A DNA stretch of 59,747 bases, the filler included. It is 5 parts of 5 records of this genome, joined end to end, with 100 filler letters (N's around TTAATTAATTAA, not from the genome) between each part and the next. Parts side by side here need not be neighbours in the genome. Positions count along the whole stretch, not along the records: positions 27,373 to 47,532 come from SRR31156797_1625; 4 more parts are not named here. One strand, written 5' to 3'. Positions 9,373 to 45,965 of the stretch are shown here, one piece after another. Position numbers and translations under genes: made by a program. The stretch's first letter is position 1. Every line of letters begins with the position of its first letter. The notes under the pieces are model-generated. The model was given only the letters and a program-made list of their open reading frames with translations. It did no database searches and had not been told where the DNA came from.

Positions 9373-9376
9373 CTAA

Positions 9377-29479: not shown

Positions 29480-30079
29480 CTATAATGTAACTTTTAAACC
29501 CAAAGAAATAATAGATTGAGACAAGTTGTACTTTGTCGTTCCAGCTTCAGTTATCAGGTTTTCATTGATGTCGTAATAAAGTAAGCTGTAATCGCTTTTG
29601 AAAGATTTGTAGTTATACCTGCCTTGTAAAAAAACAGCGAACTGATCTGAAAATGGGTATTTTACTATTGCATTAACCCCAAAATAGTATCCCATTGCGA
29701 GATCATATTCAATTGTTGTTAAATAAAAACCATCTGATTCGGCATAGTTAGGTAAACTGTTAAAGTTTATTCCGCCGATTATCCCAAGTTCTGCATATTT
29801 TGTGTCATAGCAAAAACCTGTTCCAAAATCTGAGGTTGAGTATTTTTCTTCACCCTTCCAGGCTTTTTGCGCACTGTATTGCACTTCAATTGGTATATAG
29901 AATGGGATTTCTCCAATATTGAAGTTAAATAAGTCGGCCTTCAAACCTAACGATAATCCAGGCTCAAAACTATCGTCGTCATCGTTAATGATACTGATGC
30001 CTCCATTGATTGAAAAGGATTGACTAAATGTTACTGTTGCGATAGCAATTGCTATCAGTGTAAAAGTTAATTTTTTCAT
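29480..30079 (-). CDS. Small outer-membrane beta-barrel protein
   Basis: Signal peptide ending FS-Q, amphipathic beta strands, C-terminal ISLGLKVTL. Confidence 0.7.
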   Translation of the reverse strand: MKKLTFTLIAIAIATVTFSQSFSINGGISIINDDDDSFEPGLSLGLKADLFNFNIGEIPFYIPIEVQYSAQKAWKGEEKYSTSDFGTGFCYDTKYAELGIIGGINFNSLPNYAESDGFYLTTIEYDLAMGYYFGVNAIVKYPFSDQFAVFLQGRYNYKSFKSDYSLLYYDINENLITEAGTTKYNLSQSIISLGLKVTL

Positions 30080-30135
30080 AAAAGTTTTGTTTTTGATTGC
30101 CTCTCAGCACCAAAAAGGCGATTATTTTTTTACAT

Positions 30136-30297
30136 AAAAAAGCGTGGCACTGTAGCTTATCTGCTTTAGAGGCATCGCCAAACACCCACGAGAACAAACA
30201 AGTACAGCCCACGCATGGCGTGAGCGGTGTACCTTTAATCCAGTTCTCGTTTGAAAAATGGCGATTTTCTAAAGCAAGATTAAAAGCTAACGCTTCT
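30136..30297 (-). ncRNA. Candidate structured cis-regulatory leader RNA
   Basis: Seven nested complementary segment pairs forming a ~155-nt rod, plus an alternative terminator-like pairing ending in U6; it lies between a TATTTTTG -7 promoter box (30368-30375) and the barrel gene. Confidence 0.6.
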
Positions 30298-30513
30298 TAT
30301 TTTTTATTTTAAATTTTAGCTCATTTCAGAGTATTCAGTTTTGGTTTTTATGAATTTGTCTCAGAAGCAAAAATATCAAATACCTGCCATTAATAACACG
30401 CATTACACATATTGATCCATTCTAAATAACAAATCGATAAATGCTTTACTCATGGTGTTGACAGTGTTCCTCATTATTACACGGTATAATAACTTAATTG
30501 TATTGAAAATAAT

Positions 30514-30600
30514 TTACACCATTTCAGCCTGTTTAAGCACGGTTTCGGTGGTGAGTTTTTGCATGTCGGGCGGATAACCGTATTTGCGAAAAAGGCGTTT
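30514..30600 (-). pseudogene. Orphan copy of the hsdR 3' end
   Basis: Translates KRLFRKYGYPPDMQKLTTETVLKQAEMV*, versus native HsdR KRLLRKYGYPPDMQKLATETVLKQAVMIADEMV*. Confidence 0.9.
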
Positions 30601-30749
30601 ATTTACGAATGAACAAATTCGTGAGTTACATGAACTTCATCATTATTTTATTACAGTGGATTTGAGGTTCAAAAGCATAAAACATATTAGGAATTTCAAT
30701 ACATAAAATGTGTTTAATTTAATAATCGTTTTTTGAAACATCACGACAG

Positions 30750-31061
30750 TTAATTGAGCAGGTAACTACATTTGCCAGCTTTGCAGTTTTGGTCGATAAT
30801 AGCCAAATGAGCAATTAGTATTGGCAACTGTAATGGGACTGCTTCTTTTTGTTTTTGCTCGTGTTTCTTCTTTAATCTTTGCACAAAAAGATTATGTAAA
30901 AAATCATCATCATGTAAAATCTTTCGGAAGCCTTTAAACATATCAACCTCCATGGCAAAATCAGCGTCAATTTTTATTCTTTCTTCCACTTGCAATGAAG
31001 TTGCGCTGTCCAATACTCCATTTAGGTAATCAATAATTGTATCTGCATCATGTTCCTTCAT
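30750..31061 (-). CDS. Small protein resembling an anti-sigma-factor N-terminal domain
   Basis: MKEHDADTIIDYLNGVLD...VEERIKIDADFAMEV resembles the IxxYLxGxLxxxExxxFE pattern; no partner sigma gene nearby, so possibly a fragment. Confidence 0.45.
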   Translation of the reverse strand: MKEHDADTIIDYLNGVLDSATSLQVEERIKIDADFAMEVDMFKGFRKILHDDDFLHNLFVQRLKKKHEQKQKEAVPLQLPILIAHLAIIDQNCKAGKCSYLLN

Positions 31062-31275
31062 TTTTTTTATGTTTTGGTTTGTATTAATTAGTAATTCAAA
31101 AAGCAATTTACGTTATGTTCACTAAGCCTTTCTTTGAAATTGGCAGCTTAACCCGGATCAAAATCGTAAATTCCTTCTTCCTACTATTATGTTCCGGTAC
31201 ATATCAAAACATCACACTTTTTTAACACTCATTAACATTTATTAACAATGAAGAAATCAGAATGCACTGGCTGAT

Positions 31276-34200
31276 TTAAACCATCTCATCCGCAATCATC
31301 ACTGCCTGTTTCAGCACGGTTTCGGTCGCGAGCTTCTGCATATCGGGCGGGTAGCCGTATTTGCGGAGCAGCCGTTTTACAGCCACTTTCAGTTTAGCCC
31401 GCACGCTTTCTTTTATCGTCCAATCTATGGAGGCGTTCTTTTTTACTGTTTCGGATAAAACAACTGCCAATTCCCGCAACCTGTCCTGCTGCATCAGTTC
31501 GCGTGCGCTGTCGTTGTTGGCCACGGCTGTGTAAAAGGCGTATTCATACTCCGAAAGCCCCATACTTTTAGCCTCGCTGTCTATCTCCACGATGTGCTTA
31601 CTCAGTTTTATCAGTTCATCCATCACCTCTGCTGCCGTCAGGATTTTGTTGTGATACTTCTTTATCGAGTTTTCCAGCATCTCCATCAGGCTTTTGCTTT
31701 TTACCAGATTCTTTTTTGAGCGTGACTTTATTTCATCGTTGAGCAGCTTTTTCAACACTTCCAGGGCCACATTTTTATGCTCCATCCCTTTTAGTTCAAG
31801 CAAAAATTCCTCAGACAGTATAGAAATATCTGGTTTCTTTATGCCGGCTGCATCGAATACGTCTACTACTTGTTCTGATATGAGTGCCTGGTCGATAACC
31901 TGCCGGATGGTTGTATCAATGTCCACCCCGTTTTTACCTTCGCTTGTGGCCTCAAATTTTACCAGCCTGGCTTTTACAGCCTGGAAAAACGAGACTTCCT
32001 CCTTCACATCCATGGCCTGTTCATGCGGGATGGCGATAGCAAATGCTTTTGACAGGGCTGTGACTTCGTTGATAAAACGTTTTTTGCCATCGTCGATGCT
32101 CAGTATGTGTTCCTCGGCACGAAGAATCAGGGACAACTTTTCGGATGTGCCGGCCTGGAAATAATCTTCATAAGGTAAATCATGAAATAGGTTTGAAACG
32201 ACTTCCAATTTTTCCTGCATAAGTTGTACGGCCTGCTCCTGGGCAATGGCCGGATCGCCTTTACCACCCGAATCTGAATAGAACGACAGGGCTTTTTTCA
32301 GGTCGGATGCGATGCCGAGATAGTCAACCACCAACCCGCCGGGTTTATCCTTGTAAACCCGATTTACACGCGCAATGGCCTGCATCAGGTTGTGTCCCTG
32401 CATGGGTTTGTCGATGTACATGGTGTGCAGGCACGGCACATCAAAACCTGTAAGCCACATATCCCGCACAATCACCAGTTTGAGTTCATCATCCGGGTCT
32501 TTCATTCGGTCGGCAAGGGTTTTGCGTTGCTCTTTGGTGGTGTGGTGTTTGGCAATTTTCGATCCCTCAGAGGATGAAGCGGTCATCACCACCTTTATCG
32601 CGCCTTTGTTCAGTTCATCTGAATGCCACTCTGGCCGCAGATTAATTATTTCATCGTACAGGTCAGCAGCTATCCTTCGCGACATGGCCACGATCAAACC
32701 TTTGCCTTCGAAAACCTCCTGGCGTTGCCCGAAATGTGTAATGATGTCTTTTGCAACCCGCTTAACCCGGTTTTCACTTCCAACAAGTGCTTCTAATTGT
32801 GTCCACTTTGCTTTGGCTTTCTGTGTTTGGTCTAAATCTTCGCTTTCCAACTGCTTATCCAGGTCTTCAACCAGCTTTTTGCCTTCGTCACTGAGATTAA
32901 CCTTGGCTAACCGGCTTTCGTAGTAAATGCGCACGGTGGCACCATCTTCAACAGCTTTGGCAATGTCATAGACATCGATGTAATTGCCGAAAACTGCCGG
33001 TGTGTTTACATCGGTTTTTTCGATCGGCGTACCTGTAAAACCAATAAAGGTTGCGCTGGGCAATGCATCGCGCAGATATTTAGCGAATCCATAAACGATC
33101 TTTTTCCCGATTACATCACCAGCATCATTTTTATCATCAATGGTCTTCGCTTTAAATCCATATTGCGTTCGGTGGGCTTCATCTGCTATCACAACAATGT
33201 TTTTACGATCAGACAGGGTTTCGTACACATTGCCATCATCGGGTTGAAATTTTTGGATTGTTGTAAAAACTACACCACCGGAAGCCACCCTAAGTTTTTC
33301 TTTCAGGTCTTCTCGGTTTGCTGCCTGTTTGGGCTCCTGTCGCAATAGTTGTGTGGATGATGCGAAAGTATCAAATAACTGGTCGTCCAGGTCGTTTCGG
33401 TCGGTAATCATCACGATGGTTGGGTTATCCATGGCCAAAACCAGTTTCCCGGTAAAAAACACCATCGACAGGGATTTGCCACTACCCTGTGTGTGCCATA
33501 CAACGCCTCCTTTACGATCTCCGGCAGGCTGCGCTTTTACACCTGGTAAGCCATAGTTTTTAGGCGATTCCGAAAGGTTTAGTAACGGGTTGTTATCGTG
33601 TTGTTGATAGTTACTTGCCCGCAATGCAGATTCGATGGCTCGGTTAACAGCATAATATTGGTGGTAAGCAGCCAGCTTTTTTACCGTTTTTATTGTGACC
33701 ACACCTGTTTCCAGGTCTTCGGTTTTGGATTTTTCAAAAACAATGAAATGCCTGATTAAGTCCAGGAGCGTTTTTTTATTGAGCATCCCATTGGCAACTG
33801 TTTCAAGCTGCCCGATTAAGTTTGAGGCTTCAGCCTGGCCATCAGCGGATTTCCAGGCCATGAACCGTGTTAAACCCGCCGAAATGGTACCGGCCTTTGC
33901 TTCCAGACCATCCGAAATAACCGAAAAGGCATTGAATGTAAATAGGTGCGGTATCGCTGCCTTGTAAGTATCAATCTGGTTAAATGCACTTTTGATGGTG
34001 GCCTTTTCATCCGCGGCGTTTTTCAACTCCATTACTACCAGGGGAAGGCCGTTGACAAAAAGAATAACGTCAGGTCGCTTATTTACACCCTGCTCAACCA
34101 CAGTAAATTGGTTGGCAACCACAAAATCGTTGTTATCCGGATTGTTGAAGTCGATGAGCCAAACCAGATCGCCGCGCTGGTGGCCGTCCTTTTGATAGCT

Positions 34201-34497
34201 TACCTTAATGCCTTCGGTTAGCATCCGGTGGAAGGTTTCGTTGTTGGTTAGTAATTCAGGCGAATGGATGCGGTTAACCTCCTTCAGGGCTTCTTCCAGT
34301 TGTTCACCCGGAAGGTTTGGGTTTATCCGGCTGACAGCATCCCTAAGCCGTTGGGATAGTATTACATCCTCGTAACTGCTGCGTTCGGGTTTCGGGCCAT
34401 CGTGAGCGATGTCGGGGCCGTGAATGTAGTGGTAGTCGTTATCCGTTAAGAGTTCGACAACCATTTGTTCTATATCTGATTCGATTAGCTTGTTCAT
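31276..34497 (-). CDS. hsdR: Type I restriction endonuclease subunit R
   Basis: RPDVILFVNGLPLVVMELK nuclease motif, HTQGSGKS, DEAHR, FTGTP, MWLTGFD, QAIARVNR. Confidence 0.97.
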   Translation of the reverse strand: MNKLIESDIEQMVVELLTDNDYHYIHGPDIAHDGPKPERSSYEDVILSQRLRDAVSRINPNLPGEQLEEALKEVNRIHSPELLTNNETFHRMLTEGIKVSYQKDGHQRGDLVWLIDFNNPDNNDFVVANQFTVVEQGVNKRPDVILFVNGLPLVVMELKNAADEKATIKSAFNQIDTYKAAIPHLFTFNAFSVISDGLEAKAGTISAGLTRFMAWKSADGQAEASNLIGQLETVANGMLNKKTLLDLIRHFIVFEKSKTEDLETGVVTIKTVKKLAAYHQYYAVNRAIESALRASNYQQHDNNPLLNLSESPKNYGLPGVKAQPAGDRKGGVVWHTQGSGKSLSMVFFTGKLVLAMDNPTIVMITDRNDLDDQLFDTFASSTQLLRQEPKQAANREDLKEKLRVASGGVVFTTIQKFQPDDGNVYETLSDRKNIVVIADEAHRTQYGFKAKTIDDKNDAGDVIGKKIVYGFAKYLRDALPSATFIGFTGTPIEKTDVNTPAVFGNYIDVYDIAKAVEDGATVRIYYESRLAKVNLSDEGKKLVEDLDKQLESEDLDQTQKAKAKWTQLEALVGSENRVKRVAKDIITHFGQRQEVFEGKGLIVAMSRRIAADLYDEIINLRPEWHSDELNKGAIKVVMTASSSEGSKIAKHHTTKEQRKTLADRMKDPDDELKLVIVRDMWLTGFDVPCLHTMYIDKPMQGHNLMQAIARVNRVYKDKPGGLVVDYLGIASDLKKALSFYSDSGGKGDPAIAQEQAVQLMQEKLEVVSNLFHDLPYEDYFQAGTSEKLSLILRAEEHILSIDDGKKRFINEVTALSKAFAIAIPHEQAMDVKEEVSFFQAVKARLVKFEATSEGKNGVDIDTTIRQVIDQALISEQVVDVFDAAGIKKPDISILSEEFLLELKGMEHKNVALEVLKKLLNDEIKSRSKKNLVKSKSLMEMLENSIKKYHNKILTAAEVMDELIKLSKHIVEIDSEAKSMGLSEYEYAFYTAVANNDSARELMQQDRLRELAVVLSETVKKNASIDWTIKESVRAKLKVAVKRLLRKYGYPPDMQKLATETVLKQAVMIADEMV

Positions 34498-34565
34498 GTG
34501 CTATGTACTTTGTAATAATGCAATAATAAATGTTTAATAACCTGATACAAAACAATCCATAATCA

Positions 34566-35435
34566 CTACAAAAACGACTTAATTCCGTTCCATAATGATA
34601 GTTTTTTCTGGTATGGTATAGCTGCATTTGCCGAGCTTGTTGACGGTAAACTCAATAATTTAACCCCATTGATGCTCCCGAAATGCTTTCCAAATAGCTT
34701 TGCGGCTTCTTTTCCGTTAAATGCAATGGCTTTTATGGTGTTGTTTTTTGTAATAAAGGCTTCCAGACCGTTTGGCACAGCATCTTTTATGTCTGCATCC
34801 AGGCTTCCTTCTCTAAAACACGACTGACAAACATCCCAAACAGCAATTCCACCATCAAGCAACATCTTTTTACGTTTTTCATAATTTACAGGAATCGGTT
34901 CGCCTAATAATTCTCCTATAAGTTTCCAGAATAGGTTGAGTGAATTGGCGTAGTACTGTTGCTTTTTCAGGGATTCATTACCGGGCATTGTTCCTAATAT
35001 AAGAAATTTACTTTTTTTGTCAACAATCGGGTCGAACCCAACGATTTTATTCTCAATATCGGTTGGGTCTGGTTCAACAGGATGCTGATTTTGTGAAAAA
35101 AGCCCACTACTTTTCCTTTTTGGTGGGGCCGCAAAGCCCAATTTGCCAACTTTTTTAGCCACTCTTTCTCGTTTAGGCAAACCATCCGGCTGTGCGCCGC
35201 TCCAAGAAATGTCTATCCGGTTGCCATGATGGATTGCTTTAAAGCTAATACTGTCTTTATGGCCTACCTTTTTGCCATCAAAGGTGTACGATTCGATGAA
35301 GTCCTTGCTTTCATGATCAATGTTTACAATTAGCGTGTCGCCATCAGTAACCTTCTTTGTGTCGATTTTGTAGGGTGACGATTCGGAAGCTCTGGTTTTA
35401 GTACGAATGGTTCGGTTTCTGATTATTTCTGCCAT
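34566..35435 (-). CDS. DNA-deoxyinosine glycosylase (UDG family 6-like) with an extra N-terminal domain
   Basis: C-terminal part has LILGTMPG.ESL..QQYYAN..N.FW, GIAVWDV, GSLDADI, FNGK and LPSTSSAN; the first ~125 aa are unassigned. Confidence 0.85.
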   Translation of the reverse strand: MAEIIRNRTIRTKTRASESSPYKIDTKKVTDGDTLIVNIDHESKDFIESYTFDGKKVGHKDSISFKAIHHGNRIDISWSGAQPDGLPKRERVAKKVGKLGFAAPPKRKSSGLFSQNQHPVEPDPTDIENKIVGFDPIVDKKSKFLILGTMPGNESLKKQQYYANSLNLFWKLIGELLGEPIPVNYEKRKKMLLDGGIAVWDVCQSCFREGSLDADIKDAVPNGLEAFITKNNTIKAIAFNGKEAAKLFGKHFGSINGVKLLSLPSTSSANAAIPYQKKLSLWNGIKSFL

Positions 35436-35470
35436 ATGTTTAGGAATTATTGGTTATTGATTTTTAGATT

Positions 35471-35860
35471 TTACAAGCGATGATGTTTTGCGATATCGCC
35501 AAACTGCCTACGTTTCATTATTTTGGCTTGCTCGTGTGAGTAAAATGGATCCACTTCGGCCCTGAAATCCTTTTTTTTAAACCGATCCGGGTCTTTCGCT
35601 TCAATGCGTTTGCGGTTGGTGTATTTAAACCAGGCGCATTCAAACTCTGTTACCGGTTGCGTTTCCATGTGGCTCACCTGCACAAAATGATCCTGGTCTT
35701 CGTTAAGCGGTTCAAGATCGCCGGATGTAAGGGCGCTAAACCAATGTCCCCACTTTTCGAGCAATTCGATTTCGTCTGCTGAAAAGATGGCTCTGTTGCA
35801 ATCAATAGTGAATGAGCCTTTTTTCTTGATGTGGTCCCGATGATCCTGCCTGGTGCTCAT
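35471..35860 (-). CDS. DUF413 / MaoP (YifE)-like protein
   Basis: FS..E..LLE.WG....AL..G.LEP....Q.HFV.V.....P.TE.E.AW.KY pattern recalled for DUF413. Confidence 0.72.
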   Translation of the reverse strand: MSTRQDHRDHIKKKGSFTIDCNRAIFSADEIELLEKWGHWFSALTSGDLEPLNEDQDHFVQVSHMETQPVTEFECAWFKYTNRKRIEAKDPDRFKKKDFRAEVDPFYSHEQAKIMKRRQFGDIAKHHRL

Positions 35861-35866
35861 ATTGGG

Positions 35867-36526
35867 TTATGATTTTGATGATTTTGTAAATGCGCTGTAT
35901 TTATCCAGCCACAGTTTATAAAATTTGATGCGGGTGGCCGGTAGGTGGGGATAAGGAAAAATGTTCCGTTGCAGCAGGTTTTCTGTTTTGCTGCAAAACC
36001 TGAATTGCCCGGTTCCGGATTTGGTTTTTTTATCGTAACCCCAATAATGGTTTACTTGCGCCTGATCTCCGGCCAGCAATTTAAGTACCGGCAGGCCGAG
36101 CGTAATGATCTTTGCTTTTGGATAGGTTGCAAGTTCACCGCGTAGCAGTTCCAGATTGGGCTGCAAGTGAGCTTTAAGCACGTCAAAAGTTTGTTCCGGG
36201 GGTACACTGTAAAAGTATTTAAAAACGTTTGTAGCGTAGATTTCATCAAACGGGATTTCGAGCTGTTGGCAAACTCGTTGTAGGTACTTGCGTAAGCTGC
36301 CGGGTTTATCCAGGTTGAGGGTGTATTCAATTTTGTTTCGGGTGGCTTCGTTTTGTATGGTGGGGTCTTGCCCGATGATGATCAGCGAAACTTTGTTGGT
36401 GGTGCGGTAGGGTAATACCGGAAGCAGGGAATCATCAATTGAGTTAGCCGCATCATCAGCGGTTTGTTTTAGTTTATCCCTGATTGCCAACGATTGCATA
36501 AATACATCCGTAGTTTTCATAGGCAC
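35867..36526 (-). CDS. Divergent uracil-DNA glycosylase superfamily protein
   Basis: IIIGQDP motif 1, IYATNVFK, IITLG and C-terminal FPYPH motif 2. Confidence 0.75.
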   Translation of the reverse strand: MPMKTTDVFMQSLAIRDKLKQTADDAANSIDDSLLPVLPYRTTNKVSLIIIGQDPTIQNEATRNKIEYTLNLDKPGSLRKYLQRVCQQLEIPFDEIYATNVFKYFYSVPPEQTFDVLKAHLQPNLELLRGELATYPKAKIITLGLPVLKLLAGDQAQVNHYWGYDKKTKSGTGQFRFCSKTENLLQRNIFPYPHLPATRIKFYKLWLDKYSAFTKSSKS

Positions 36527-36547
36527 TTAATCTTTTATTCTCACCTC
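36527..36547 (-). repeat. Short degenerate copy of the hsdS 3' end (copy D)
   Basis: GAG GTG AGA ATA AAA GAT TAA = EVRIKD*, 17/21 nt identical to the end of copy B; abuts the start of the UDG-like gene. Confidence 0.55.
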
Positions 36548-36578
36548 GATAAAGGGTGAATTTCTAAATCATATGTTT

Positions 36579-37001
36579 TTAATCAAATTCATCAACACTG
36601 CCCACATATTTTTCAACTCCGATTATTCTATCAATTTCCTCTTCTAAATTCATTAAAGTATCTGGCCATTCGTCGGGCTCTTGCAGATAATGATCGATGG
36701 TCCGTTTCATGCCATCCTGCATTTCCACTGTGGACACACACGAGGGCATATCGGTCATAAAAACTTCAGGTTCTTGCGCTTGCAGGGCAAAGTAAGCACA
36801 TTTCAATAGTTGTTGATTAAGTTCGGTAAGGGCTTGCTTGCTGATATACCAAATATGCCTGCCTGTTTGTTCAACAAAATAATAGCCAGTGTATGTTACT
36901 CGTCCTGAATGATGGATGCTAACCTTGTAAACAGGACATGTGCCGTAGCATGGGGTTCGTTCGAGCTTTATTGCATTAAATTTTACCGGCATTTCTATCA
37001 T
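36579..37001 (-). CDS. DUF6438-like protein
   Basis: IKLERTPCYGTCPVYKVSI...G.V.Y.G and TDMPS motifs, recalled for DUF6438. Confidence 0.72.
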   Translation of the reverse strand: MIEMPVKFNAIKLERTPCYGTCPVYKVSIHHSGRVTYTGYYFVEQTGRHIWYISKQALTELNQQLLKCAYFALQAQEPEVFMTDMPSCVSTVEMQDGMKRTIDHYLQEPDEWPDTLMNLEEEIDRIIGVEKYVGSVDEFD

Positions 37002-37021
37002 TGCAACATTGAATTACCTTA

Positions 37022-37060
37022 TTACATTTTCACCCGCACTTCGCCACTCATCAGCTTTGG
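37022..37060 (-). repeat. Copy of the hsdS 3' end (copy C)
   Basis: Translates PKLMSGEVRVKM*; 37028-37057 is a perfect 30-bp match to 38048-38077. Confidence 0.92.
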
Positions 37061-37102
37061 GAATCATCAACCTTACATTTCTACGTTGGGTGGATGTGTT
37101 AT

Positions 37103-37501
37103 TTATTTAGCATCATACTTGTTCAGAACTCTTTTTAATTCTCCAATTCTACTCATTAAATGTGTATTCCCTTTTATATATTTTTTTATTTTCTCAAAGT
37201 CATCCTTGTTTACTATTTCTTCGCCTAAGTTTGTTTTGTTGTATTCTGATTCATCCTGAAGATATGCCGATAAAGCCAAAATACATAAATCAAAACATCG
37301 GTGCAATGGCATCTCCTCGCTTTGACGGCTCCATTTTTTACCTGTATGTCTCCATATTTTAGCTGAAATATCATTATTGTTCCATTGTGCTTTTCCAATT
37401 GATAAAGCCTTGCAATCGGAATTGTTAGCATATTTACCATCGTGTTTGTCGTAATTATCTGCCACTAAAATGGGCTTGTGCAATAGATGTTTTGGATACA
37501 T
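37103..37501 (-). CDS. DUF6530-like protein
   Basis: LLHKPI...DG.YA..SD.KALSIG.AQWN...DISAKIWRHTG.KWSRQSEEMPLHR..DL; AAGGAGG RBS upstream. Confidence 0.75.
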   Translation of the reverse strand: MYPKHLLHKPILVADNYDKHDGKYANNSDCKALSIGKAQWNNNDISAKIWRHTGKKWSRQSEEMPLHRCFDLCILALSAYLQDESEYNKTNLGEEIVNKDDFEKIKKYIKGNTHLMSRIGELKRVLNKYDAK

Positions 37502-37528
37502 TTTTAATCCTCCTTTAAAATTTGAAAT

Positions 37529-37604
37529 TTAATATTTAACTCTAACCTCCCCACTCATTAGTTTCATAAGCTGTGTATCCCGCAGTTTTTCTATGGTGCG
37601 GATT
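37529..37604 (-). repeat. Diverged copy of the hsdS 3' end (copy B)
   Basis: Translates IRTIEKLRDTQLMKLMSGEVRVKY*, versus native IRTLEKLRDTLLPKLMSGEVRVKL*; in frame, with many third-position differences. Confidence 0.92.
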
Positions 37605-37624
37605 TATTTTTGATAAATTAATTC

Positions 37625-38029
37625 TCATTTGCCTTTATTTTTCGTCATGAAAACACGCACCCTGTCAAAATCCTGCCAATCTTTAGGTTTAAAATTTAAA
37701 TTTACATTCTCATCCTTATTTTGTAGATGGCGAAGCATGCTATTCTTCCATTCCTTTTTGATTTCATTGGAAAAGTACCCCTTTTTCATGTGGTACAATT
37801 GCTCATTAAATAATCCCAGTAGGTCATCTCTCAACACTTTTATGTTTGCGTTTTTTCCACATTGAAGTTCACGAACAATCCTTCGGTATTCAGCCGTGCA
37901 TTTATTCATAACAACCAGATTATTAGACTGTATGTTGATAATAAGGCTTCCTGCAGCTATTATGATTCCTATAGCCATAAATAGGTCAATTATCATATCA
38001 AATGTTACTGTAGCTTCCAATAATACCAT
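37625..38029 (-). CDS. Hypothetical protein with N-terminal membrane anchor
   Basis: 134 aa, one TM (LFMAIGIIIAAGSLII) and a helical soluble part; starts 12 nt after the hsdS stop. Confidence 0.65.
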   Translation of the reverse strand: MVLLEATVTFDMIIDLFMAIGIIIAAGSLIINIQSNNLVVMNKCTAEYRRIVRELQCGKNANIKVLRDDLLGLFNEQLYHMKKGYFSNEIKKEWKNSMLRHLQNKDENVNLNFKPKDWQDFDRVRVFMTKNKGK

Positions 38030-38041
38030 AGCTCTATTTTT

Positions 38042-39235
38042 TTATAATTTCACCCGCACTTCGCCACTCATCAGCTTGGGCAGCAGCGTATCCCGGAGCT
38101 TTTCGAGTGTGCGGATTTGGGTATTGTTCAATTCTTGTTTTTCATTGTAAGTTTTCGCTATTTCGTTGAATCGTTGAATTTTATCCATTGAAGGTAGGTT
38201 AAACTTAACCCATTCAACACCATCCTTTGATAGCATGTTAACTGTACTTCCATTTGTAGCTCCGGCTATTTGTTCATGTACATCTTTGGTTTTTAATAAA
38301 TGGAATAGGAAGTAACTTGATAACTGTGATTTGATTTTTAGGCGATAAATGTGTTGTGAAAAAATACCAAAATCACCAAATGTCTCTGGAACAATTGCAG
38401 GATAGCCGATTAATAAATGTTCATGTCCCTGTTCAGTATTGGTTATTATTACGTCACCAGGAAATACTTTATGTCTTTCTTTAAATTCTCCTTTGTAGTA
38501 TTTGATGCCAGCTTCTTTATAACCACCGCCTTCATAAATTGAATTGAGGTTGTGCATTGGCATGCCTCCATGACAGTCTGTAAGCCCACTACCCTTATAG
38601 CTAAGCCCTCTTTGAACTTCAACAAATTCATCAAGTTGATGCCATTCATTAACATTTTTCGCTTCCTCAACAAACCACTGCCTAAAAAGCGTTTCGGCCA
38701 TTTGTTCCAGGGTTTTGTTTTGGCGGTGGAGCAGGTCTATTTTGTCGTCGAGGCTGCTGAGCACGGCGGCAATGGCGCGTTGCTCGGGGAGGGAGGGGAG
38801 TATGAATTGATGCTGTTTTACCACATCAGTTTGCACTCTTTGCCTTCCTGAACTACCCGTCATTGATTTAATTGCAGAAAAGCGAATTGTTGGAGAAATT
38901 GCTAAATAATATACAAAATGCTTATCTGAAACATTCTCTTTTTCACGAAGAACGATAAATTCAGTTGAACCAAAACCGATTTCATCTTCATCTAAAATAT
39001 CTACAAATGAAGTTTTTCCGTTTTCAAGGCTTGGTGTAATACGAGCCATTAATGTATCACCATTTTTAAACTTAACTCCACCTTTGTATTCCTCTATTGA
39101 ATAACTTGGAATTCTTTTCGTAAATGGCTGAATTATTTCCATCGGGATTTTCTTTGCGATCTTTCCCTTTGGAATTCTTTCAGTAGGATTAATATCCGCA
39201 AAGTCCCCTAATTTATAACCTTTCCACTCACTCAT
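38042..39235 (-). CDS. hsdS: Type I restriction-modification specificity subunit
   Basis: Two TRDs separated by the conserved LPSLPEQRAIAAVLSSLDDKI...LFRQWF spacer; C-terminal LEKLRDTLLPKLMSGEVRV. Confidence 0.96.
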   Translation of the reverse strand: MSEWKGYKLGDFADINPTERIPKGKIAKKIPMEIIQPFTKRIPSYSIEEYKGGVKFKNGDTLMARITPSLENGKTSFVDILDEDEIGFGSTEFIVLREKENVSDKHFVYYLAISPTIRFSAIKSMTGSSGRQRVQTDVVKQHQFILPSLPEQRAIAAVLSSLDDKIDLLHRQNKTLEQMAETLFRQWFVEEAKNVNEWHQLDEFVEVQRGLSYKGSGLTDCHGGMPMHNLNSIYEGGGYKEAGIKYYKGEFKERHKVFPGDVIITNTEQGHEHLLIGYPAIVPETFGDFGIFSQHIYRLKIKSQLSSYFLFHLLKTKDVHEQIAGATNGSTVNMLSKDGVEWVKFNLPSMDKIQRFNEIAKTYNEKQELNNTQIRTLEKLRDTLLPKLMSGEVRVKL

Positions 39236-39482
39236 TAATCTCTATCCTTAGTAAATCATCGAGTGCAATACCGCCATCATAAGGCATATCGGCTGCACCT
39301 TTAAGCATTTGAATTCTGATGCCGATTCGGTCATTTTTAATTGCAGGTGTGTCATTAAAGGTAAATTCAACCCTCCCTTTATATTTAATTGGTTTTCCAT
39401 TCTCCATAATTGAAAATACAACAGAAGTATTTTTATCAATCTGGTTTTCTGTTATAAACTGCATGATTTCATTTCTATTCAT
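39228..39482 (-). CDS. Hypothetical 84-aa protein inserted between hsdM and hsdS
   Basis: Its ATG overlaps the hsdM stop and its own stop overlaps the hsdS ATG; it ends LRIEINE*, like HsdM (LKIEINE*). Confidence 0.65.
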
Positions 39483-41022
39483 TGATCTCAATTTTTAAAA
39501 AATTCGTGGTAATGCGTTTATTGAGCTCGGCTTCTTCTTTGAGTTGGGCTTCAAACTCGGCTTTAAGCTGCGTAAATCTATCGTTAAAATCAAAATCATC
39601 CTCTTCTTCGGCCAGGCCAACGTAACGTCCTGGGGTCAATACATAGTCCAGTTCCTGAACCCTTTGGATGGGCGCCGAGTTGCAAAAGCCTTTCACATCC
39701 TCGTATTCACCATCGGGATTGCGCCAGTTGTGGTAGGTTTCGGTTATCGTTTGTATGTCTTCATCCGAAAGTTCGCGTGTACGGCGGTTGATCAGGTGGC
39801 CCATGTTACGGGCGTCAATAAACAGAATTTCTCCGCTGCGGTCGCGGTATTTGCCGTTTGTCCGGTTACGCCGCATAAACCACAGCGAAGCCGGTATTTG
39901 CGTGTTCAGGAACAGCTTTGCCGGCAGGTTCACAACGCAGTCAATCAGGTTTTCATCAATCAGTGCTTTGCGGATTTCGCCTTCACCACTGCTCTTAGAA
40001 GTTAAAGCACCCTTTGCGAGCACAAACCCGGCCTGTCCGGTTGGTGCCATGTGATACAGGAAATGCTGTATCCAGGCGTAGTTGGCGTTTCCCGTAGGGG
40101 GCACACCGTGTTTCCAGCGGCCATCCTTGCGTAGTAAATCACCGCTCCAGTCGCTAACGTTAAAAGGCGGATTGGCAATAATGAAATCGGCTTTCAAGTC
40201 TTTGTGGGCATCGTTCAGGAACGATCCTTCGTTGTTCCACCTCACCTGCGAACTGTCTATGCCACGAATGGCCAGGTTCATTTTGCACAGCCGCCAGGTG
40301 GTTTGGTTGCTTTCCTGCCCGTAAATGGATATGTCGTTGATTCGCCCCTGGTGTTCCAGTACAAACTTCTCAGACTGGACAAACATACCACCGGAACCAC
40401 AACAGGGGTCGAACACCCTGCCCTGGTATGGTTCAAGCATACGAACCAGCAGTTCAACCACACTGCGTGGCGTGTAGAACTGTCCACCCTTTTTGCCTTC
40501 GGCCAGGGCAAATTCACCTAAAAAATATTCAAAAACGTGCCCAAGCACATCCGCACTGCGGGATTTGGTATCTCCCAAGGCAATGTTTCCTATCAGGTCG
40601 ATCAATTCACCCAGGCTGGTGGGATCGAGGTTTTGCCGTGCATACACTTTGGGTAGCACACCTTTTAATGATGGGTTTTCCCGCTCTATCACATCCATGG
40701 CATCGTCAACAGTCTTGCCGATGGTGGGCTGTTTGGCGTGGCTCATCAGGAACTTCCAGCGTGCTGATGGCGGCACAAAAAATACGTTTTCGGCCTTGTA
40801 TTCGTCTTTGTCTTCAGGGTCGGCACCTTCGTATTCGCCTTCACCGGAAAGCAGCTTTTCGTACAGTTCCAGGAACGCATCGCTGATGTATTTGAGGAAG
40901 ATCAGGCCGAGTACCACATGTTTGTACTCCGCTGCATCTATGTTTTTCCGTAGTTTATCCGCTGATTTCCAGAGTTGTTTCTCCAGGGGTTCCTCTTTAG
41001 GGATTGAGGCTTTCTTTGCCAT
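39475..41022 (-). CDS. hsdM: Type I restriction-modification N6-adenine methyltransferase subunit
   Basis: [27 protein letters not shown] (motif I), NPPF (motif IV), LTPGRYVG. Confidence 0.97.
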
Positions 41023-41060
41023 AAGCTAACAAGGTTAATTTTGATTTTGGTTTGAACTTT

Positions 41061-41068
41061 CAAAGATA
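41061..41068 (-). promoter_or_regulatory. Bacteroidota primary-sigma -7 promoter box for the hsd operon
   Basis: TATCTTTG matches TAnnTTTG, ~40 nt upstream of the hsdM start. Confidence 0.55.
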
Positions 41069-41118
41069 TTGAAATTTTATAGATAGGTAATGTAAATGGC
41101 CGGTAAATTTTTATCTAT

Positions 41119-41145
41119 AAAAAAAGCCCGGACATTGCCGGGCTT
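41119..41145 (-). terminator. Intrinsic terminator ending the backbone transcript
   Basis: AAGCCCGG-CAATGT-CCGGGCTT followed by a T-run on the minus strand. Confidence 0.78.
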
Positions 41146-41173
41146 GAACAATAACCACAGATGAACCATATCT

Positions 41174-41641
41174 TTAATCGATCATCTCCTCGAATTCATC
41201 CTCGATGTCGTTGCCAAGTTCGTTGTCTGGGTCTTTCTGGTTGGCAGTAATGTGTAGGTTATCTTTAATGGCCTCAAAAATGCACTGTTTAATGGTATCA
41301 TCGAATGTGGTATTCGTTAGTGGTTTGTCGATCTCCCGGAGTGTGAAATCAGCATAAATGTAGGTTAACAGTTCGATCTGAGGCTGGGTGAATTTGAGTA
41401 TTATTCCTTTGTATTCATCCGAAGAAAGCTGAATACCGGAGATGCACTGGAGTTTTTCATTTTCGGCCTTTAGCCGCTGGTTATCTTTTTCCAGTTTTTG
41501 TATTTGCTGGCTGTCCAGCAATGCGCGGTTACGCACGAACTTCGACAAGCTAATGTTTAGTTCCTGCGCTGTTTGGTTGAGTTTTGCCTTTTCGGCTGCG
41601 GTCACCTGGAAGGTGATTGTTGTTTTGTTGTTTGGTTTCAT
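41174..41641 (-). CDS. Ribbon-helix-helix (MobC/CopG-like) DNA-binding protein with coiled coil
   Basis: TITFQVTAAEKAKLNQTAQELNISLSKFVRNRAL is an RHH pattern, followed by heptads IQKLEKDNQRLKAENEKL. Confidence 0.65.
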   Translation of the reverse strand: MKPNNKTTITFQVTAAEKAKLNQTAQELNISLSKFVRNRALLDSQQIQKLEKDNQRLKAENEKLQCISGIQLSSDEYKGIILKFTQPQIELLTYIYADFTLREIDKPLTNTTFDDTIKQCIFEAIKDNLHITANQKDPDNELGNDIEDEFEEMID

Positions 41642-41783
41642 AAAATAGTTTAATGTTGGTTTATAATAGGTATTTACTATCCCGATAAGTTTTTAAATGT
41701 ATTGGTTAGTTACGTGCCCATATATAGGGCACGTACTAATTAACGCATAGCGTTTCTTGATTTGGACAACCATGATAATACAG

Positions 41784-43250
41784 TTAAGCAGCCTGATCAT
41801 CAATTACGTTATTTCGTTTTTCATGGTTTTCTGCTTCAGGCAATTTTAAATTGGGATCGTTTTGGTCTGCATCATGGGCGCGCTGATATAATTTAGCTTT
41901 CCCCTTTTGTTTTTGGATGATATAGCCTTCATTAACGTAATAATCCCTAAAAAGACGTGCTTTAGAGTTCCCAAAGGAATCATAGTAAGTTGCAGACAGA
42001 TCACAAATAGCTTTATCCATTTCTGTACTGTTTAATTCTGTGTGACGCGAAAAAATTTCACAAACAGCATTTTTATGATCCATAGCTGCATAGTCGTCTG
42101 GGTCGATTCGACGGGTTGGGCTACCTTCTATTTCACATAGTTCCGGTAGACCATTCTCATTTATTCTAAAAGCAAAAGGGGGAAATTCGATATTTCTACC
42201 GAATTCAGTTTTCACTAAGGAGACCTCCCTATTTGATGAGCTTTTACTTATGTTGATGGTGGATTCGGCTTTGTTAACGATTTCTGAACCAAGGTGGCCA
42301 CGAGCATTTTGGTCATTTTTATTTTGGTGTAATACAACAATGATGCTGATCTCATAATCATGAGTCCAGGTCATTAGCCGATCTACTATCATTGTAGCTT
42401 GGTCAGGGCTGTTTATATCAGTAAGTAAATCCCTAATACCATCAATCACAATCAGGCCAAGATTTGGTGTGTTCTGGATTGCGTATTCAATTAATTTCAG
42501 TCGATTTTCGGTACTTTTGTTTCGCAATTGGAAAACACGTAGGTTTTTTCTTTCGCCCGCTTGCCTTACAATCCGTTCATAAGTTTTATAGACATGGTAG
42601 TTAGATTGTTCAGTGTCAAAATGTAATACCTTTTTTTTACCATGAGGTAGTTCCCCCTTCATATTTAATGTTTCTTGTCCAAGAGCAGCCGCGATAGCAG
42701 CAGTAAGCGCAAATGTTTTCCTTGATTTTGCTTTTCCGATTATCGCGATAAAGTTCCCCAGTGTGGCGACAATTTGTCCGTCGATCCTTAGTGCTACCTG
42801 TGGTGCGCTTGGCGGATTATTATAGTCAAGTTCGGCTTTATTAAGTTCAGACTCTATTGAATCATAAGTATTTATACTGTTACGCATGTTTTGTTTTGAG
42901 GGGATGGACTGGTCATTGATGTTTCGGATGCCAAACTGGTGCTCTCGCTTATAAGCGTTATTAATGCAGCGACGAATTTCTGAGTCTCCAAAGCCTGGTT
43001 GCTGGAATTTAAGTAGTTCAGTTTCGGTTTCATGCTTGGGAATGCCGTATCGATTGCAAACTGAAGCATAGCGGTGAATGTAGTTGTTGCGATTATTGTT
43101 TTTAAATGGTATTTGCATCTTCTGGTGGAATGCATCAAAGATTTGTTTGTCACCAGTTGAATTTTGTTTTTTGTTTTTCTGCCATTTAACTGGTAGGTTC
43201 GATGGTAGTTTGTGAGCTATTTTTTTTCGTAGTTCTTTTGATTTCGCCAT
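41784..43250 (-). CDS. PriCT-like domain plus AAA/RepA-type (SF4-like) helicase
   Basis: RNNYIHRYA...GI...EI...INNAYK (primase C-terminal-like), Walker A GKAKSRKT, FDTEQS, IVIDGIRDL, VLHQNK, RGHLGSE. Confidence 0.8.
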   Translation of the reverse strand: MAKSKELRKKIAHKLPSNLPVKWQKNKKQNSTGDKQIFDAFHQKMQIPFKNNNRNNYIHRYASVCNRYGIPKHETETELLKFQQPGFGDSEIRRCINNAYKREHQFGIRNINDQSIPSKQNMRNSINTYDSIESELNKAELDYNNPPSAPQVALRIDGQIVATLGNFIAIIGKAKSRKTFALTAAIAAALGQETLNMKGELPHGKKKVLHFDTEQSNYHVYKTYERIVRQAGERKNLRVFQLRNKSTENRLKLIEYAIQNTPNLGLIVIDGIRDLLTDINSPDQATMIVDRLMTWTHDYEISIIVVLHQNKNDQNARGHLGSEIVNKAESTINISKSSSNREVSLVKTEFGRNIEFPPFAFRINENGLPELCEIEGSPTRRIDPDDYAAMDHKNAVCEIFSRHTELNSTEMDKAICDLSATYYDSFGNSKARLFRDYYVNEGYIIQKQKGKAKLYQRAHDADQNDPNLKLPEAENHEKRNNVIDDQAA

Positions 43251-43960
43251 AAAGAAAAAAGTTTAGGGTTGATAAAACAATTTGGATCATGGCATAACCA
43301 GCAGGCGCGGGCTATGTCACTGGTTGCAACATCAAGATAGTTGTAAAAGTCGGGATGTTCTTCCTCGATATATAGGGTTACTAATTGATAGAGTTCGTTG
43401 TGGTCTGTAACTGCCGTATCAGGATTATATTTGGCATCGGTGTCGGACAGGATTGCCTTCAAACCATCTCCGCCGGGGGAAGTAAACATTAGTTGCGGGT
43501 CGAGCATTTCATCGCGTGCCAGGGTTTGTTTAACCTGCTCCGGGTCGGGCACATGATCGAAGTCTAACACGATATATGAACTGCGCCAGCGCAGGGCATG
43601 GGACTTGCGTTCACTAAATACTCCGCTGACCGTGAAGAAGTCAAAGCTGTTCTTCTTTAGATGCGAATTAGGGTTATTTCTGTAATCGGCTGTTGTTTTT
43701 GCAAAATAATCTCCTTTGATTACCTCATAGAGCTGCATGATGTCTATTTGGCGATAAGGTATTAGATTGGTTATCGGTGCTCTATAGTAGCTGAATTTGG
43801 GTAAATGAAGTTCATAGTTCCCTTCATATATATCGAACAATAACTTATTATTTACCGGGTAGTTAAACCTTCTTGACAGTTCATCTATCGTGTATACGCT
43901 GTGGTAAATTGCCCTAATCTTACTGTGAATTTGACATGCAATTTCAATTGGTATCTTCAT
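43217..43960 (-). CDS. BT4734/VirE-N family primase-polymerase-like protein
   Basis: FTVSGVF..R, IVLDFDHV, FTSPGGDGLK, D....DIARACWLCHDP. Confidence 0.82.
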   Translation of the reverse strand: MKIPIEIACQIHSKIRAIYHSVYTIDELSRRFNYPVNNKLLFDIYEGNYELHLPKFSYYRAPITNLIPYRQIDIMQLYEVIKGDYFAKTTADYRNNPNSHLKKNSFDFFTVSGVFSERKSHALRWRSSYIVLDFDHVPDPEQVKQTLARDEMLDPQLMFTSPGGDGLKAILSDTDAKYNPDTAVTDHNELYQLVTLYIEEEHPDFYNYLDVATSDIARACWLCHDPNCFINPKLFSLWRNQKNYEKK

Positions 43961-44005
43961 GGTACATAGGTGTTATACCAGGGCATAAAGCCCTGGTTGA
44001 TAATT

Positions 44006-44830: not shown

Positions 44831-44966
44831 TTTTTTAATTTTAATTAATAAATAAATGAGCGGCAAATATAGTGAGCGCTTAGGCTGAAGGCCGTACCAT
44901 AAATACCCACAACCCAAAAGAAATTCTGGGTAATTTTGGGTATAATATTACATAAAGTGCGCTGTT

Positions 44967-45962: not shown

Positions 45963-45965
45963 TTG

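Follow-up and report, generated by a model that had tools for sequence, protein, structure and literature searches.

Orphan hsd gene ends flank cargo genes in a type I restriction-modification operon and are probable scars of recombination between such operons

Gene embedding in type I restriction-modification (R-M) operons is already known. As far as the accessible text of the relevant papers goes, described cases include PrrC in EcoprrI, DarTG2 in the EPEC RRDM island, TgvAB in V. cholerae VPI-2 and the "guilt-by-embedding" genes, and the stretch between hsdS and hsdR has been described as a possible hotspot of recombination (PMC12255303; PMC11411939; Payne et al., bioRxiv 10.1101/2024.01.29.577857). 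Embedded genes already serve the discovery of anti-phage systems, and their route of entry had been left open. The accessible text of these papers offers no mechanism beyond a "genomic sink" and mentions no leftover hsd ends, unlike what is described here; the end-remnant signature was not found in the literature, and the supplementary tables of Payne et al. might list loci with pseudogene fragments. The operon described here, which lies in a 59.7-kb window (the whole stretch of DNA that was analysed), resembles the embedded-gene cases in that accessory genes are nested among hsdM, hsdS and hsdR in operon orientation.

Insertion of R-M gene complexes with long target duplication was reportedly described by Nobusato in 2000. 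In the available portion of a further study, R-M gene complexes were inserted with long target duplication, the repeats exceeding 30 bp, without mobility genes and in some cases over a gene 3' end (Furuta et al. 2010; PMC2853133). The inserts in the window are likewise bracketed by direct repeats of >30 bp with no mobility gene, excepting the hsdM repeat of about 27 nt. However, in the published cases the whole R-M system is the insert and the repeats are near-identical, whereas in the window the R-M operon itself is what the inserts entered, and its repeats are divergent alleles of hsd gene ends (73 to 81% identity with pS of 0.66 to 0.85 for two pairs, only hsdS copy 3 reaching 90%).

According to the openly available parts of the reports, domains move at conserved hsdS repeats (PMC3077401), hsdS genes form invertons or shufflons (PMC7672463), and defence hotspots are flanked by conserved core genes, as in P2/P4 elements (PMC9122126). 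As in the hsdS systems so described, conserved hsdS segments appear here to be places of crossover through which the intervening sequence is reshuffled. In contrast to those systems, which in that text move recognition domains within or between hsdS genes, often by means of inverted repeats and an invertase, the repeats in the window are direct, lie outside the gene as remnants of the last 7 to 26 codons only, without a recognition domain, and would shuffle unrelated genes; no invertase was found. P2/P4 hotspots, as presented there, share the arrangement of variable defence cargo between conserved flanks and exchange by recombination in those flanks, but here the flanks are subunits of a defence enzyme and partial flank copies accumulate inside the array. 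Integrons are similar in having a one-directional array, cassettes that look promoter-less, a recurring short separator and expression from one end. Unlike integrons, the operon is without IntI, attI or an attC fold (8 folds, both strands, z of -1.39 to +0.83), fragments of coding sequence act as its separators, and general recombination best accounts for the exchange.

The minus-strand layout bore out the original prediction that cargo sits at every hsdM-hsdS-hsdR junction. Eight additional genes lie within or behind the three hsd genes, with inserts at all three junctions and all on the minus strand like the operon itself. The genes of the operon and the integrase of the mobile element that carries it are as follows.

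41022-39475, minus strand: hsdM, type I methylase subunit, 515 aa, ending ...NFLKIEINE-stop (Pfam N6_Mtase, PF02384, 7.6e-110; HsdM_N, PF12161, 1.1e-25)
39482-39228, minus strand: orf87, cargo at the hsdM/hsdS junction, 84 aa from the ATG at 39482, 33.3% GC
39235-38042, minus strand: hsdS, specificity subunit, 397 aa, ending ...LLPKLMSGEVRVKL-stop (Pfam Methylase_S, PF01420, 3.3e-29, two stretches)
38029-37625, minus strand: orf134, first cargo gene behind hsdS, with a hydrophobic N terminus, 34.1% GC
37501-37103, minus strand: orf132, DUF6530 cargo (Pfam PF20140, 3.1e-35), 32.8% GC
37001-36579, minus strand: orf140, DUF6438 cargo (Pfam PF20033, 2e-30)
36526-35867, minus strand: orf219, UDG-superfamily cargo (Pfam UDG, 1.6e-6)
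35860-35471, minus strand: orf129, DUF413 cargo (Pfam PF04219, 7.4e-14)
35435-34566, minus strand: orf289, with a C-terminal DNA-deoxyinosine-glycosylase-like domain (TIGR04274, 1.1e-52, 178 bits versus a cut-off of 80; Pfam UDG)
34497-31276, minus strand: hsdR, full-length restriction subunit (helicase-nuclease), 1073 aa, ending ...RKYGYPPDMQKLATETVLKQAVMIADEMV-stop (TIGR00348, 1.3e-178)
31106-30750, minus strand: orf118, cargo behind hsdR, 32.5% GC
45966-47339, minus strand: tyrosine integrase of the operon-carrying mobile element (Pfam Phage_integrase and Phage_int_SAM_5)

By the domain content of all three subunits, hsdMSR is a predicted type I R-M system. HsdS has two target recognition domains between conserved regions, of which the central and C-terminal ones match relatives. 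No family match was obtained for orf87, orf134 or orf118 in Pfam, NCBIfam, PHROG or PADLOC, and none of the eight cargo proteins matched any PADLOC-DB v2 model of a known or candidate defence family; the glycosylase-like domains of orf219 and orf289 hint at a possible role in defence. The operon is a mosaic in base composition, with 49.7% GC in hsdM, 46.7% in hsdR, 55 to 57% in the hsdS conserved regions and 34 to 36% in the hsdS target recognition domains; cargo genes flanked by scars (orf87, orf134, orf132 and orf118) have 32.5 to 34.1%. The lack of a recombinase, noted from the letters, held for positions 30514-39482, and the sole recombinase, the tyrosine integrase of the surrounding element, lies outside 30514-41022, 5 kb upstream of hsdM, with HTH_17, BT4734-like, AAA_25 and NikA-like genes in between. 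Comparison of one end of the mobile element with the other for att-like direct repeats returned AT-rich noise only, the 59.7-kb window held no tRNA genes, and positions 29500-47800 held no Rfam family. Promoter and terminator scanning gave 19 promoter-like sites versus 26.9 expected, with nothing associated with the remnants.

Repetition of the hsd gene ends, claimed from the letters as two copies for hsdM, four for hsdS and two for hsdR, was confirmed by motif counts. E-V-R-[IV]-K-x-stop matched exactly four times in the window, all on the minus strand (38062-38042, 37549-37529, 37042-37022 and 36547-36527), with a chance expectation of 0.01, and none of 100 shuffles reached four. I-E-I-N-E-stop matched twice (39492-39475 and 39245-39228), as did KYGYPPDMQK (31362-31333 and 30585-30556), with 0.00 expected in both cases. 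Beside the resident gene ends, the copies are as follows.

39257-39228, minus strand: hsdM 3'-end remnant, DLLRIEINE-stop, about 9 codons, forming the in-frame 3' end of orf87; this repeat measures only about 27 nt
37605-37529, minus strand: hsdS 3'-end copy 2, IRTIEKLRDTQLMKLMSGEVRVKY-stop, 78 nt, 73% identical to 38118-38041 (HMM match, iE 5e-8)
37060-37022, minus strand: hsdS 3'-end copy 3, PKLMSGEVRVKM-stop, matching the resident end at 90% identity over 42 nt (HMM match, iE 3e-3)
36547-36527, minus strand: hsdS 3'-end copy 4, EVRIKD-stop, 7 codons, immediately 5' of orf219, below HMM length
30606-30514, minus strand: hsdR 3'-end remnant, NKRLFRKYGYPPDMQKLTTETVLKQAEMV-stop, 81 nt, 81% identical (HMM match, iE 3e-10), without 5 codons of the resident hsdR end

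The longer repeats (78, 42 and 81 nt) are direct and bracket inserts that hold no mobility gene. The remnants differ in their left boundaries (12 to 38 codons), and the longest shared runs are 10, 14 and 30 nt, the 30-nt exact tract being common to the hsdS end and copy 3 and breaking off one codon ahead of the stop. All four hsdS ends close with a last codon (L, Y, M or D) and stop of their own, and each leads into its own gene, which argues that "hsd end plus downstream gene" behaves as a unit. At the hsdM/hsdS junction, the ATG of orf87 overlaps the hsdM stop and its 3' end overlaps the hsdS start, and the fused hsdM remnant carries the native hsdM/hsdS overlap ATTAATGAGTGA; tight relatives (L007, L011, L054 and L064) have ...INE-stop over ATGAGTGAGTGG. 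The native overlap is likewise retained in L016, with a cargo gene ending ...NLVKIKRNE-stop.

Chance similarity or an assembly artefact accounts for this pattern with negligible probability. It is true that two of the copies, that of hsdM and hsdS copy 4, are short and that the overlapping ATGAGTGA start dictates the "NE-stop" ahead of hsdS, but the motif counts greatly exceed expectation, no exact repeat reaches 31 nt, and the same architecture is present in isolate and metagenome-assembled genomes. Moreover, a separate contig assembly of the probable source run (the same source sample) covered the whole 11.2 kb in one contig with 0 differences; its layout had no joint at any repeat, the sole joint listed being inside hsdM (24-nt side, another contig). 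Neither a deletion allele nor an excised circle was seen in these contigs, a form of data from which rare variants are dropped. The 30-mer common to the hsdS end and copy 3 had 0 matches in metagenome contigs.

Copy 2 of the hsdS end differed from the resident end with a pS of 0.85 and a pN of 0.08, and the hsdR copy with a pS of 0.66 and a pN of 0.07. Pooled over 14 remnants from 10 loci, pN/pS was 0.24, a value that includes one pair of 6 codons (L068) whose full-gene end was mis-called and that comes from remnants detected by protein similarity, which caps pN; five additional Bacteroidota pairs gave a pooled value of 0.21. One pair (L140) deviated, with a pS of 0.14 and a pN of 0.13 at 87% identity. 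Since copies and resident ends differ mainly at synonymous sites, the copies derive from other, once-functional hsd alleles and not from a decayed local duplicate. On these codon patterns, the divergence appears to have arisen while both sequences belonged to working genes. The same excess of pS over pN is also expected if a local duplicate came first and the working gene was then swapped for another allele.

Orphan ends recur elsewhere. At least one isolated hsd fragment was present in 9 of 80 hsdM-related loci, in every case from a gene terminus, and the 18 isolated short fragments in these loci plus the window comprised 8 from hsdS 3' ends, 4 from hsdM 3' ends, 2 from hsdR 3' ends, 4 from hsdR 5' ends and 0 internal pieces. 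A search with the C-terminal 45 aa of HsdS through an even draw of 401 Bacteroidota genomes gave 86 matches, of which 11 were orphan (that is, in an open frame of no more than 74 aa), and 6 of these 11 sat 0.3 to 2.1 kb downstream of a full hsdS. The control, the central conserved 45 aa of HsdS, gave 0 orphans among 139 matches (Fisher P = 1.7e-5). Selection against truncated HsdS retaining a recognition domain could alone explain the survival of short ends only. The architecture recurs across bacterial and archaeal phyla with unrelated elements. In two Epilithonimonas loci, hsdM and hsdR were 90% identical at the nucleotide level while hsdS and the cargo were different, with breakpoints where hsdM ends and where hsdR begins. 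On plasmids, tblastn with the HsdS C-terminal 45 aa returned 56 records, 52 of them annotated as S subunit, 2 as "hypothetical protein" and 2 with no listed gene, under an E-value limit (7.3-Gb database) that excludes short remnants.

Re-use of hsd ends is most clearly supported by archaeal loci whose linker is absent from the window. In ANME archaea, a chimeric fusion open reading frame composed of HsdR(1-58), a bridge and the HsdS C terminus (about 109 aa in all; 234 sequence clusters) separates different cargo. Over 18 linkers there were 7 upstream neighbour families (n = 18) and 5 downstream families (n = 16), and one operon has 3 linker copies between 4 cargo blocks. The pS of the linker was 0.42 in both arms versus 0.19 in the bridge, and linker c has an hsdR-type arm, 88 to 90% identical at the nucleotide level to full-length hsdR genes and 69 to 73% identical to other linkers. 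The ANME linker has evidently recombined with a full-length hsdR, which shows that conserved hsd ends serve repeatedly for crossing over and build up arrays additively.

We consider the remnants to be scars left where type I R-M operons recombined with one another, and points at which crossovers can take place again, the array being integron-like in appearance and without dedicated machinery; to this reading we give a probability of roughly 60%. The operon would be a mosaic that arose as different type I R-M operons, carried on mobile DNA, recombined again and again. Crossovers would fall in the last 10 to 40 codons of hsdM, hsdS or hsdR (elsewhere, in the first ~60 codons of hsdR) because these are the sole stretches common to diverged operons beside the variable cargo. 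In each event a block of "hsd end plus following gene or genes" would be gained and the 3' end of one parent's hsd gene left behind, with selection keeping intact both the full-length hsd gene and the native context in which the next gene starts. As a leftover end provides homology on both sides of a cargo block, later exchanges could be additive instead of replacing, with an integron-like array as the outcome. Host general recombination functions, presumably RecA-type, would suffice together with a rare illegitimate join for the first scar, and no dedicated recombinase would be needed; like the part played by RecA-type recombination, the order of events in the window and any re-use of its own scars are inferred.

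Under this reading the original prediction survives in part. The proposal that conserved hsd ends are portable sites of homology or recombination agrees with their confinement to termini, their recurrence and the re-use of ANME crossovers, but no sign of a dedicated or active capture system was seen. Units of "hsd end plus downstream gene" inserting additively from other R-M loci fit the foreign-allele origin, the unit structure and the ANME arrays, though not the distribution of the window's own cargo. As for an integron-like array without an integron, the look of the array stands, whereas the variable left boundaries, the missing attC-like fold and the lack of a recombinase inside the operon speak against a closer likeness.

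We also considered pure decay, in which at least two full type I operons (or an extra hsdS) stood in tandem and deletions spared short ends beside the cargo that was kept, the scars never being re-used. HsdR 5' fragments lie directly before HsdS 3' fragments in L020 and L049, as expected from a deletion running from the hsdR of operon 1 to the hsdS of operon 2; the two junctions have different fusion points, so such joins arose more than once, and counter-selection of truncated HsdS with a recognition domain should trim remnants to the conserved end. Decay alone, however, cannot spread a junction, and the ANME loci place a single fusion junction between many cargo sets, with an arm exchanged with full-length hsdR and arms of twice the synonymous diversity of the bridge. 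Mid-gene fragments were also absent from the 18 fragments of the loci and window as well as from the Bacteroidota control, and we regard decay as unlikely. Less probable still is an insertion in which cargo entry duplicated 30 to 90 nt of the hsd gene end and the copies diverged later through allele replacement of the working gene. The direct repeats of 42 to 81 nt around inserts without a mobility gene do resemble the class in the available part of PMC2853133, and both the 30-nt exact tract of copy 3 and the near-equal pS and pN of the L140 pair would suit it. Most pairs, on the other hand, are 65 to 88% identical with a pS of 0.4 to 0.9, unlike the near-identical published cases, the copies all differ in bringing a terminal codon and stop of their own, and an extra allele replacement would be needed in nearly every case.

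Orphan end copies are left behind by integrative elements whose target is the 3' end of a gene. Such copies would also be expected if hsd ends were att-like sites for a trans-acting recombinase, for example the element's tyrosine integrase, as in integrons or the tandem accretion of integrative elements. The nearby integrase and the cassette-like array are in keeping with this, but there is no conserved core to the variable and mostly short shared stretches, no attC-like fold and no Rfam family; the three unrelated hsdM, hsdS and hsdR ends would all need to be sites, and the pattern recurs in phyla with unrelated elements. A site-specific system is thus highly improbable. Recombination between type I R-M operons, the preferred reading, would make orphan ends a readable record of cargo blocks from other hsd operons, of junctions in conserved termini and of scars that can be used again. 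The remnants mark cassette boundaries precisely, which helps to delimit candidate defence modules, for example orf134, DUF6530, DUF6438 and the glycosylase-type trio orf219-orf129-orf289. A further prediction is cargo exchange between any two mobile-element hsd operons that come together in one cell. More tentatively, type I R-M operons might be a general recombinase-free gene-capture platform, with conserved termini as portable homology arms through which defence cassettes are added and not merely exchanged. In that case orphan ends would mark the borders of cassettes genome-wide, and "embedding" would have its mechanism here. As part of that same tentative proposal, ANME lineages might have evolved a dedicated separator, kept open and translationally coupled between cassettes.

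The expectation that each cargo gene directly follows a full hsd gene in other genomes largely failed. Relatives of the DUF6530 gene were present in 3 of the 401 Bacteroidota genomes, none of the three directly behind hsdS, and only orf219 recurred in an hsd operon, as a 53% identical homologue between hsdS and hsdR in L077. No close relative of the window with a different cargo set (empty site) was found, and among viral contigs the 6, 13 and 2 pattern matches for orf132, orf134 and orf140 included 0 confirmed relatives. In the related loci, a HigB-like/HTH-IrrE two-gene cassette lies between hsdM and hsdS in L016 and between hsdS and hsdR in L052 (29% and 38% aa identity, too diverged for flank comparison). 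Two homologues were found for orf134, one of them (P0122) encoded on a 14-kb contig, and the single homologue of orf87 in 5.8e9 proteins (P0121) was 73% identical and ended in IGIEIHE.

The hsdMSR operon of the window was a single gene string, on the minus strand throughout (orfN denotes a cargo gene, N being the protein length; orf87 encodes 84 aa from its ATG).

Genes of the window operon, in order
41022-39475, minus: hsdM, full length, expected domains present
between hsdM and hsdS, minus: orf87
39235-38042, minus: hsdS, full length, expected domains present
directly after hsdS, minus: orf134
between orf134 and orf140, minus: orf132, DUF6530
between orf132 and orf219, minus: orf140, DUF6438
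between orf140 and orf129, minus: orf219, UDG-like/UDG-superfamily
between orf219 and orf289, minus: orf129, DUF413
directly before hsdR, minus: orf289, C-terminal DNA-deoxyinosine-glycosylase-like domain
34497-31276, minus: hsdR, full length, expected domains present
last, after hsdR, minus: orf118

Upstream of hsdM, to position 47339, lay a tyrosine integrase and genes of the NikA-like, AAA_25, BT4734-like and HTH_17 types (element 41124-47339, minus); the operon forms the cargo-bearing end of a small element of integrative or mobilisable type, for which a search for att sites found none. Only two places on the minus strand had strong terminator-like hairpins, one ahead of hsdM (41145-41124) and one roughly 290 nt beyond the last leftover hsd end (30225-30207); two weaker matches fell within hsdM and hsdR. 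In agreement with a mosaic, the GC content was 47-57% in hsdM, in hsdR and in the conserved regions of hsdS, compared with 32.5-36% in the recognition domains of hsdS and in the small genes flanked by scars (orf87, orf134, orf132 and orf118). Within hsdS itself (38042-39235, minus), the central and C-terminal conserved regions had 55-57% GC and both target recognition domains 34-36%, a pattern compatible with recognition domains having been swapped into a higher-GC frame. The orf219-orf129-orf289 trio (34566-36526, minus) sits directly upstream of hsdR. The C-terminal domain of orf289, which follows an additional N-terminal part of about 130 aa, scored 178 bits against TIGR04274 (DNA-deoxyinosine glycosylase; cut-off, 80). 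None of the three genes was in PADLOC, and L077, another type I R-M locus, carried an orf219 homologue at the same operon position; the trio may act as a glycosylase-type module directed at phages that carry modified bases.

The repeated hsd ends described at the cargo junctions in the original prediction were real and far above chance: E-V-R-[IV]-K-x-stop matched four times, all at the predicted places (chance expectation, 0.01), and IEINE-stop and KYGYPPDMQK matched twice each (0.00 expected). Relative to the resident hsdS end, copy 2 was 73% identical over 78 nt and copy 3 was 90% identical over 42 nt, including a 30-nt exact run, and copy 4 comprised only 7 codons; the hsdR copy was 81% identical to the resident end over 81 nt. 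The hsdM copy, of about 9 codons (DLLRIEINE-stop versus resident NFLKIEINE-stop), formed the C terminus of orf87. An assembly artefact is unlikely because the whole stretch also stood unchanged in another contig assembly, made separately from the probable source run; all exact repeats in the operon were shorter than 31 nt. Likeness among the four hsdS ends broke off immediately after VRVK; beyond this point each copy had a last codon (L, Y, M or D) and a stop of its own and was followed, after 0-27 nt, by a different gene. In cargo-free relatives, the hsdM end (INE-stop) lies over ATCAATGAGTGAGTGG; the stop region of hsdM there contains the ATG of hsdS. The window has this native form of the junction at orf87/hsdS, and the orf87 ATG occupied the place expected for the hsdS ATG behind hsdM; L016, another type I locus, had the same arrangement, with a cargo gene ending in NLVKIKRNE-stop over the hsdS start. 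Therefore, the units are an hsd end plus the following gene, as had been proposed, and the gene that comes next retains its native start context.

The window, with all three junctions occupied and four hsdS ends, is a rich example and not unique. Eighty loci whose HsdM is closely related (69-87% identity) were compared; they span many phyla of bacteria and archaea. Of 70 loci, 41 had an hsdM-hsdS gap of more than 300 nt, and of 60 loci, 51 had an hsdS-hsdR gap above this size; cargo is the rule in this set. Its families included RhuM, DUF1016/YhcG, Fic, Schlafen-like ATPases, HEPN-type, Abi_C, HigB/HTH-IrrE, reverse transcriptase and a putative Hachiman-like gene pair, so read from sequence alone. 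When full-length hsd HMMs were run against six-frame fragments of these loci and the window, 18 isolated short pieces were recovered, none of them internal; the remaining partial matches were frameshifted genes or contig ends.

Isolated hsd pieces (n = 18)
hsdS 3' ends: 8
hsdM 3' ends: 4
hsdR 3' ends: 2
hsdR 5' ends: 4

At least one such piece occurred in 9 of the 80 loci (window excluded), and the window layout of hsdS, cargo, remnant and then cargo or hsdR recurred in L140, L126, L143, L142 and L147. A search of 401 evenly drawn Bacteroidota genomes with the C-terminal 45 aa of HsdS gave 86 matches, spread over 77 genomes; 11 of the matches lay in open frames of ≤74 aa (6 of these 0.3-2.1 kb downstream of a full hsdS), whereas the equally conserved HsdS central region, used as a control in the same genomes, gave 139 matches, none in an open frame of <239 aa (Fisher P = 1.7e-5). 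Orphan ends are recurrent. Gene embedding in type I R-M operons is an established phenomenon, with the hsdS-hsdR gap described as a potential recombination hotspot (PMC12255303; PMC11411939; bioRxiv 10.1101/2024.01.29.577857); insertion with long target duplication is likewise a described class for R-M genes (PMC2853133). For the orphan-end signature and the chimeric linker described below, no description was found in the literature searched, supplements aside.

Three other loci showed local peculiarities. In L061 (11569-11896), the last 37 codons of hsdM stood three times in tandem with a period of about 160 nt and no cargo between, at 80-83% nucleotide identity to the resident end. In L068 (14015-15968), the hsdS frame ran about 220 codons beyond its usual end (619-aa frame), with an orphan hsdS end 11 nt past its stop. 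L009 (5821-7123) carried a FPSxGGVPEGRGG-coding motif on both strands (5821-5859, 6684-6722 and 7073-7123), at sites that all fall in the span of the hsdR open frame (5707-9447), where hsdR homology was interrupted at 6696-7141; the motif looks like a small repeat element.

Synonymous sites differed by 85% and nonsynonymous sites by 8% between hsdS copy 2 and the resident end, and by 66% and 7% for the hsdR copy. Pooled pN/pS was 0.24 (14 remnants, 10 loci) and 0.21 (5 further pairs from the independent Bacteroidota sample), with pN capped by the detection of remnants through protein similarity. Mainly synonymous divergence accrues only while both sequences are in working genes, so each remnant is the terminus of a different hsd allele that was once functional, in line with the predicted origin of the units in other R-M loci. 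It rules out decayed local duplicates as the source; the same pattern would also follow if local duplication came first and the resident gene was then replaced by another allele.

ANME archaeal loci carried a chimeric linker, an open frame of 102-117 aa joining HsdR residues 1-58, a 20-aa bridge and the HsdS C terminus in the ANME-1 contig L104.

Gene order in L104
hsdM, 298-aa gene, hsdS, 662-aa gene
6946-7254: linker 1
265-aa and 1087-aa pair (putative Hachiman-like)
11309-11641: linker 2
RhuM-like and 75-aa genes
12884-13237: linker 3
DUF262-like gene, hsdR

Linker starts and stops overlapped or directly abutted neighboring genes, except the start of linker 3. The conserved frame separates defence cassettes between hsdS and hsdR in L104 and L105-L121. 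The fusion was found in 234 sequence clusters, most of them originating from ANME archaea and sediment metagenomes (best 120 of 234: 70-100% identical, 98-119 aa); its only annotations were as a hypothetical protein or an "HsdR N-terminal domain" protein. Eighteen linkers in 16 loci were flanked by 7 upstream and 5 downstream cargo families, and the C-terminal tail past VRV fell into classes mostly matching the downstream gene. Synonymous diversity was 0.42 in both arms and 0.19 in the bridge; one arm of linker c, of hsdR type, was 88-90% identical in nucleotides to full-length hsdR genes but only 69-73% to other linkers. If linkers and resident hsd genes underwent unequal homologous crossover, a junction spreading among cargo sets, with arms importing full-length-gene diversity, would be expected. 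An independent, out-of-frame HsdR-5'/HsdS-3' junction preceded RhuM in L049, a Nitrosomonas MAG.

We consider it probable (roughly 0.6) that recombination between diverged type I operons left the copies as scars. The recombination functions of the host would perform the exchange and leave hsd ends behind, these ends could serve again as crossover points, and selection would hold the hsd genes and junction contexts intact; the order of events in the window is inferred. That hsd ends act as sites of a dedicated, site-specific capture system seems very improbable: remnant lengths varied, with no common core, no attC-like fold (z from -1.39 to +0.83) and no Rfam match in the searched region, such a system would need three unrelated "sites", and the pattern is spread over phyla whose mobile elements are unrelated. 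Deletions that collapsed tandem operons may well have made the first scar, as the R5'/S3' junctions suggest, but it cannot account for the spread and mosaicism of a single junction. No empty-site relative of the window's operon was found among the relatives searched. The cargo genes of the window are rare (one homologue of orf87, two of orf134, and DUF6530 relatives in 3 of the 401 Bacteroidota genomes), and the expectation that they would stand directly behind a full hsd gene elsewhere failed for DUF6530, with 0 of 3 directly behind hsdS.

Two Epilithonimonas loci were 90% identical in hsdM and hsdR nucleotides and differed in hsdS and cargo, with breakpoints at the hsdM end and the hsdR start; this is plain block replacement. 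In two genomes, a HigB-like/HTH-IrrE two-gene cassette occupied different junctions, hsdM|hsdS in L016 and hsdS|hsdR in L052 (L016, 5386-5460; L052, 5970-6045), both copies being preceded by TATCTTTGC.GTGAA, which we take to resemble the Bacteroidota -7 promoter motif.
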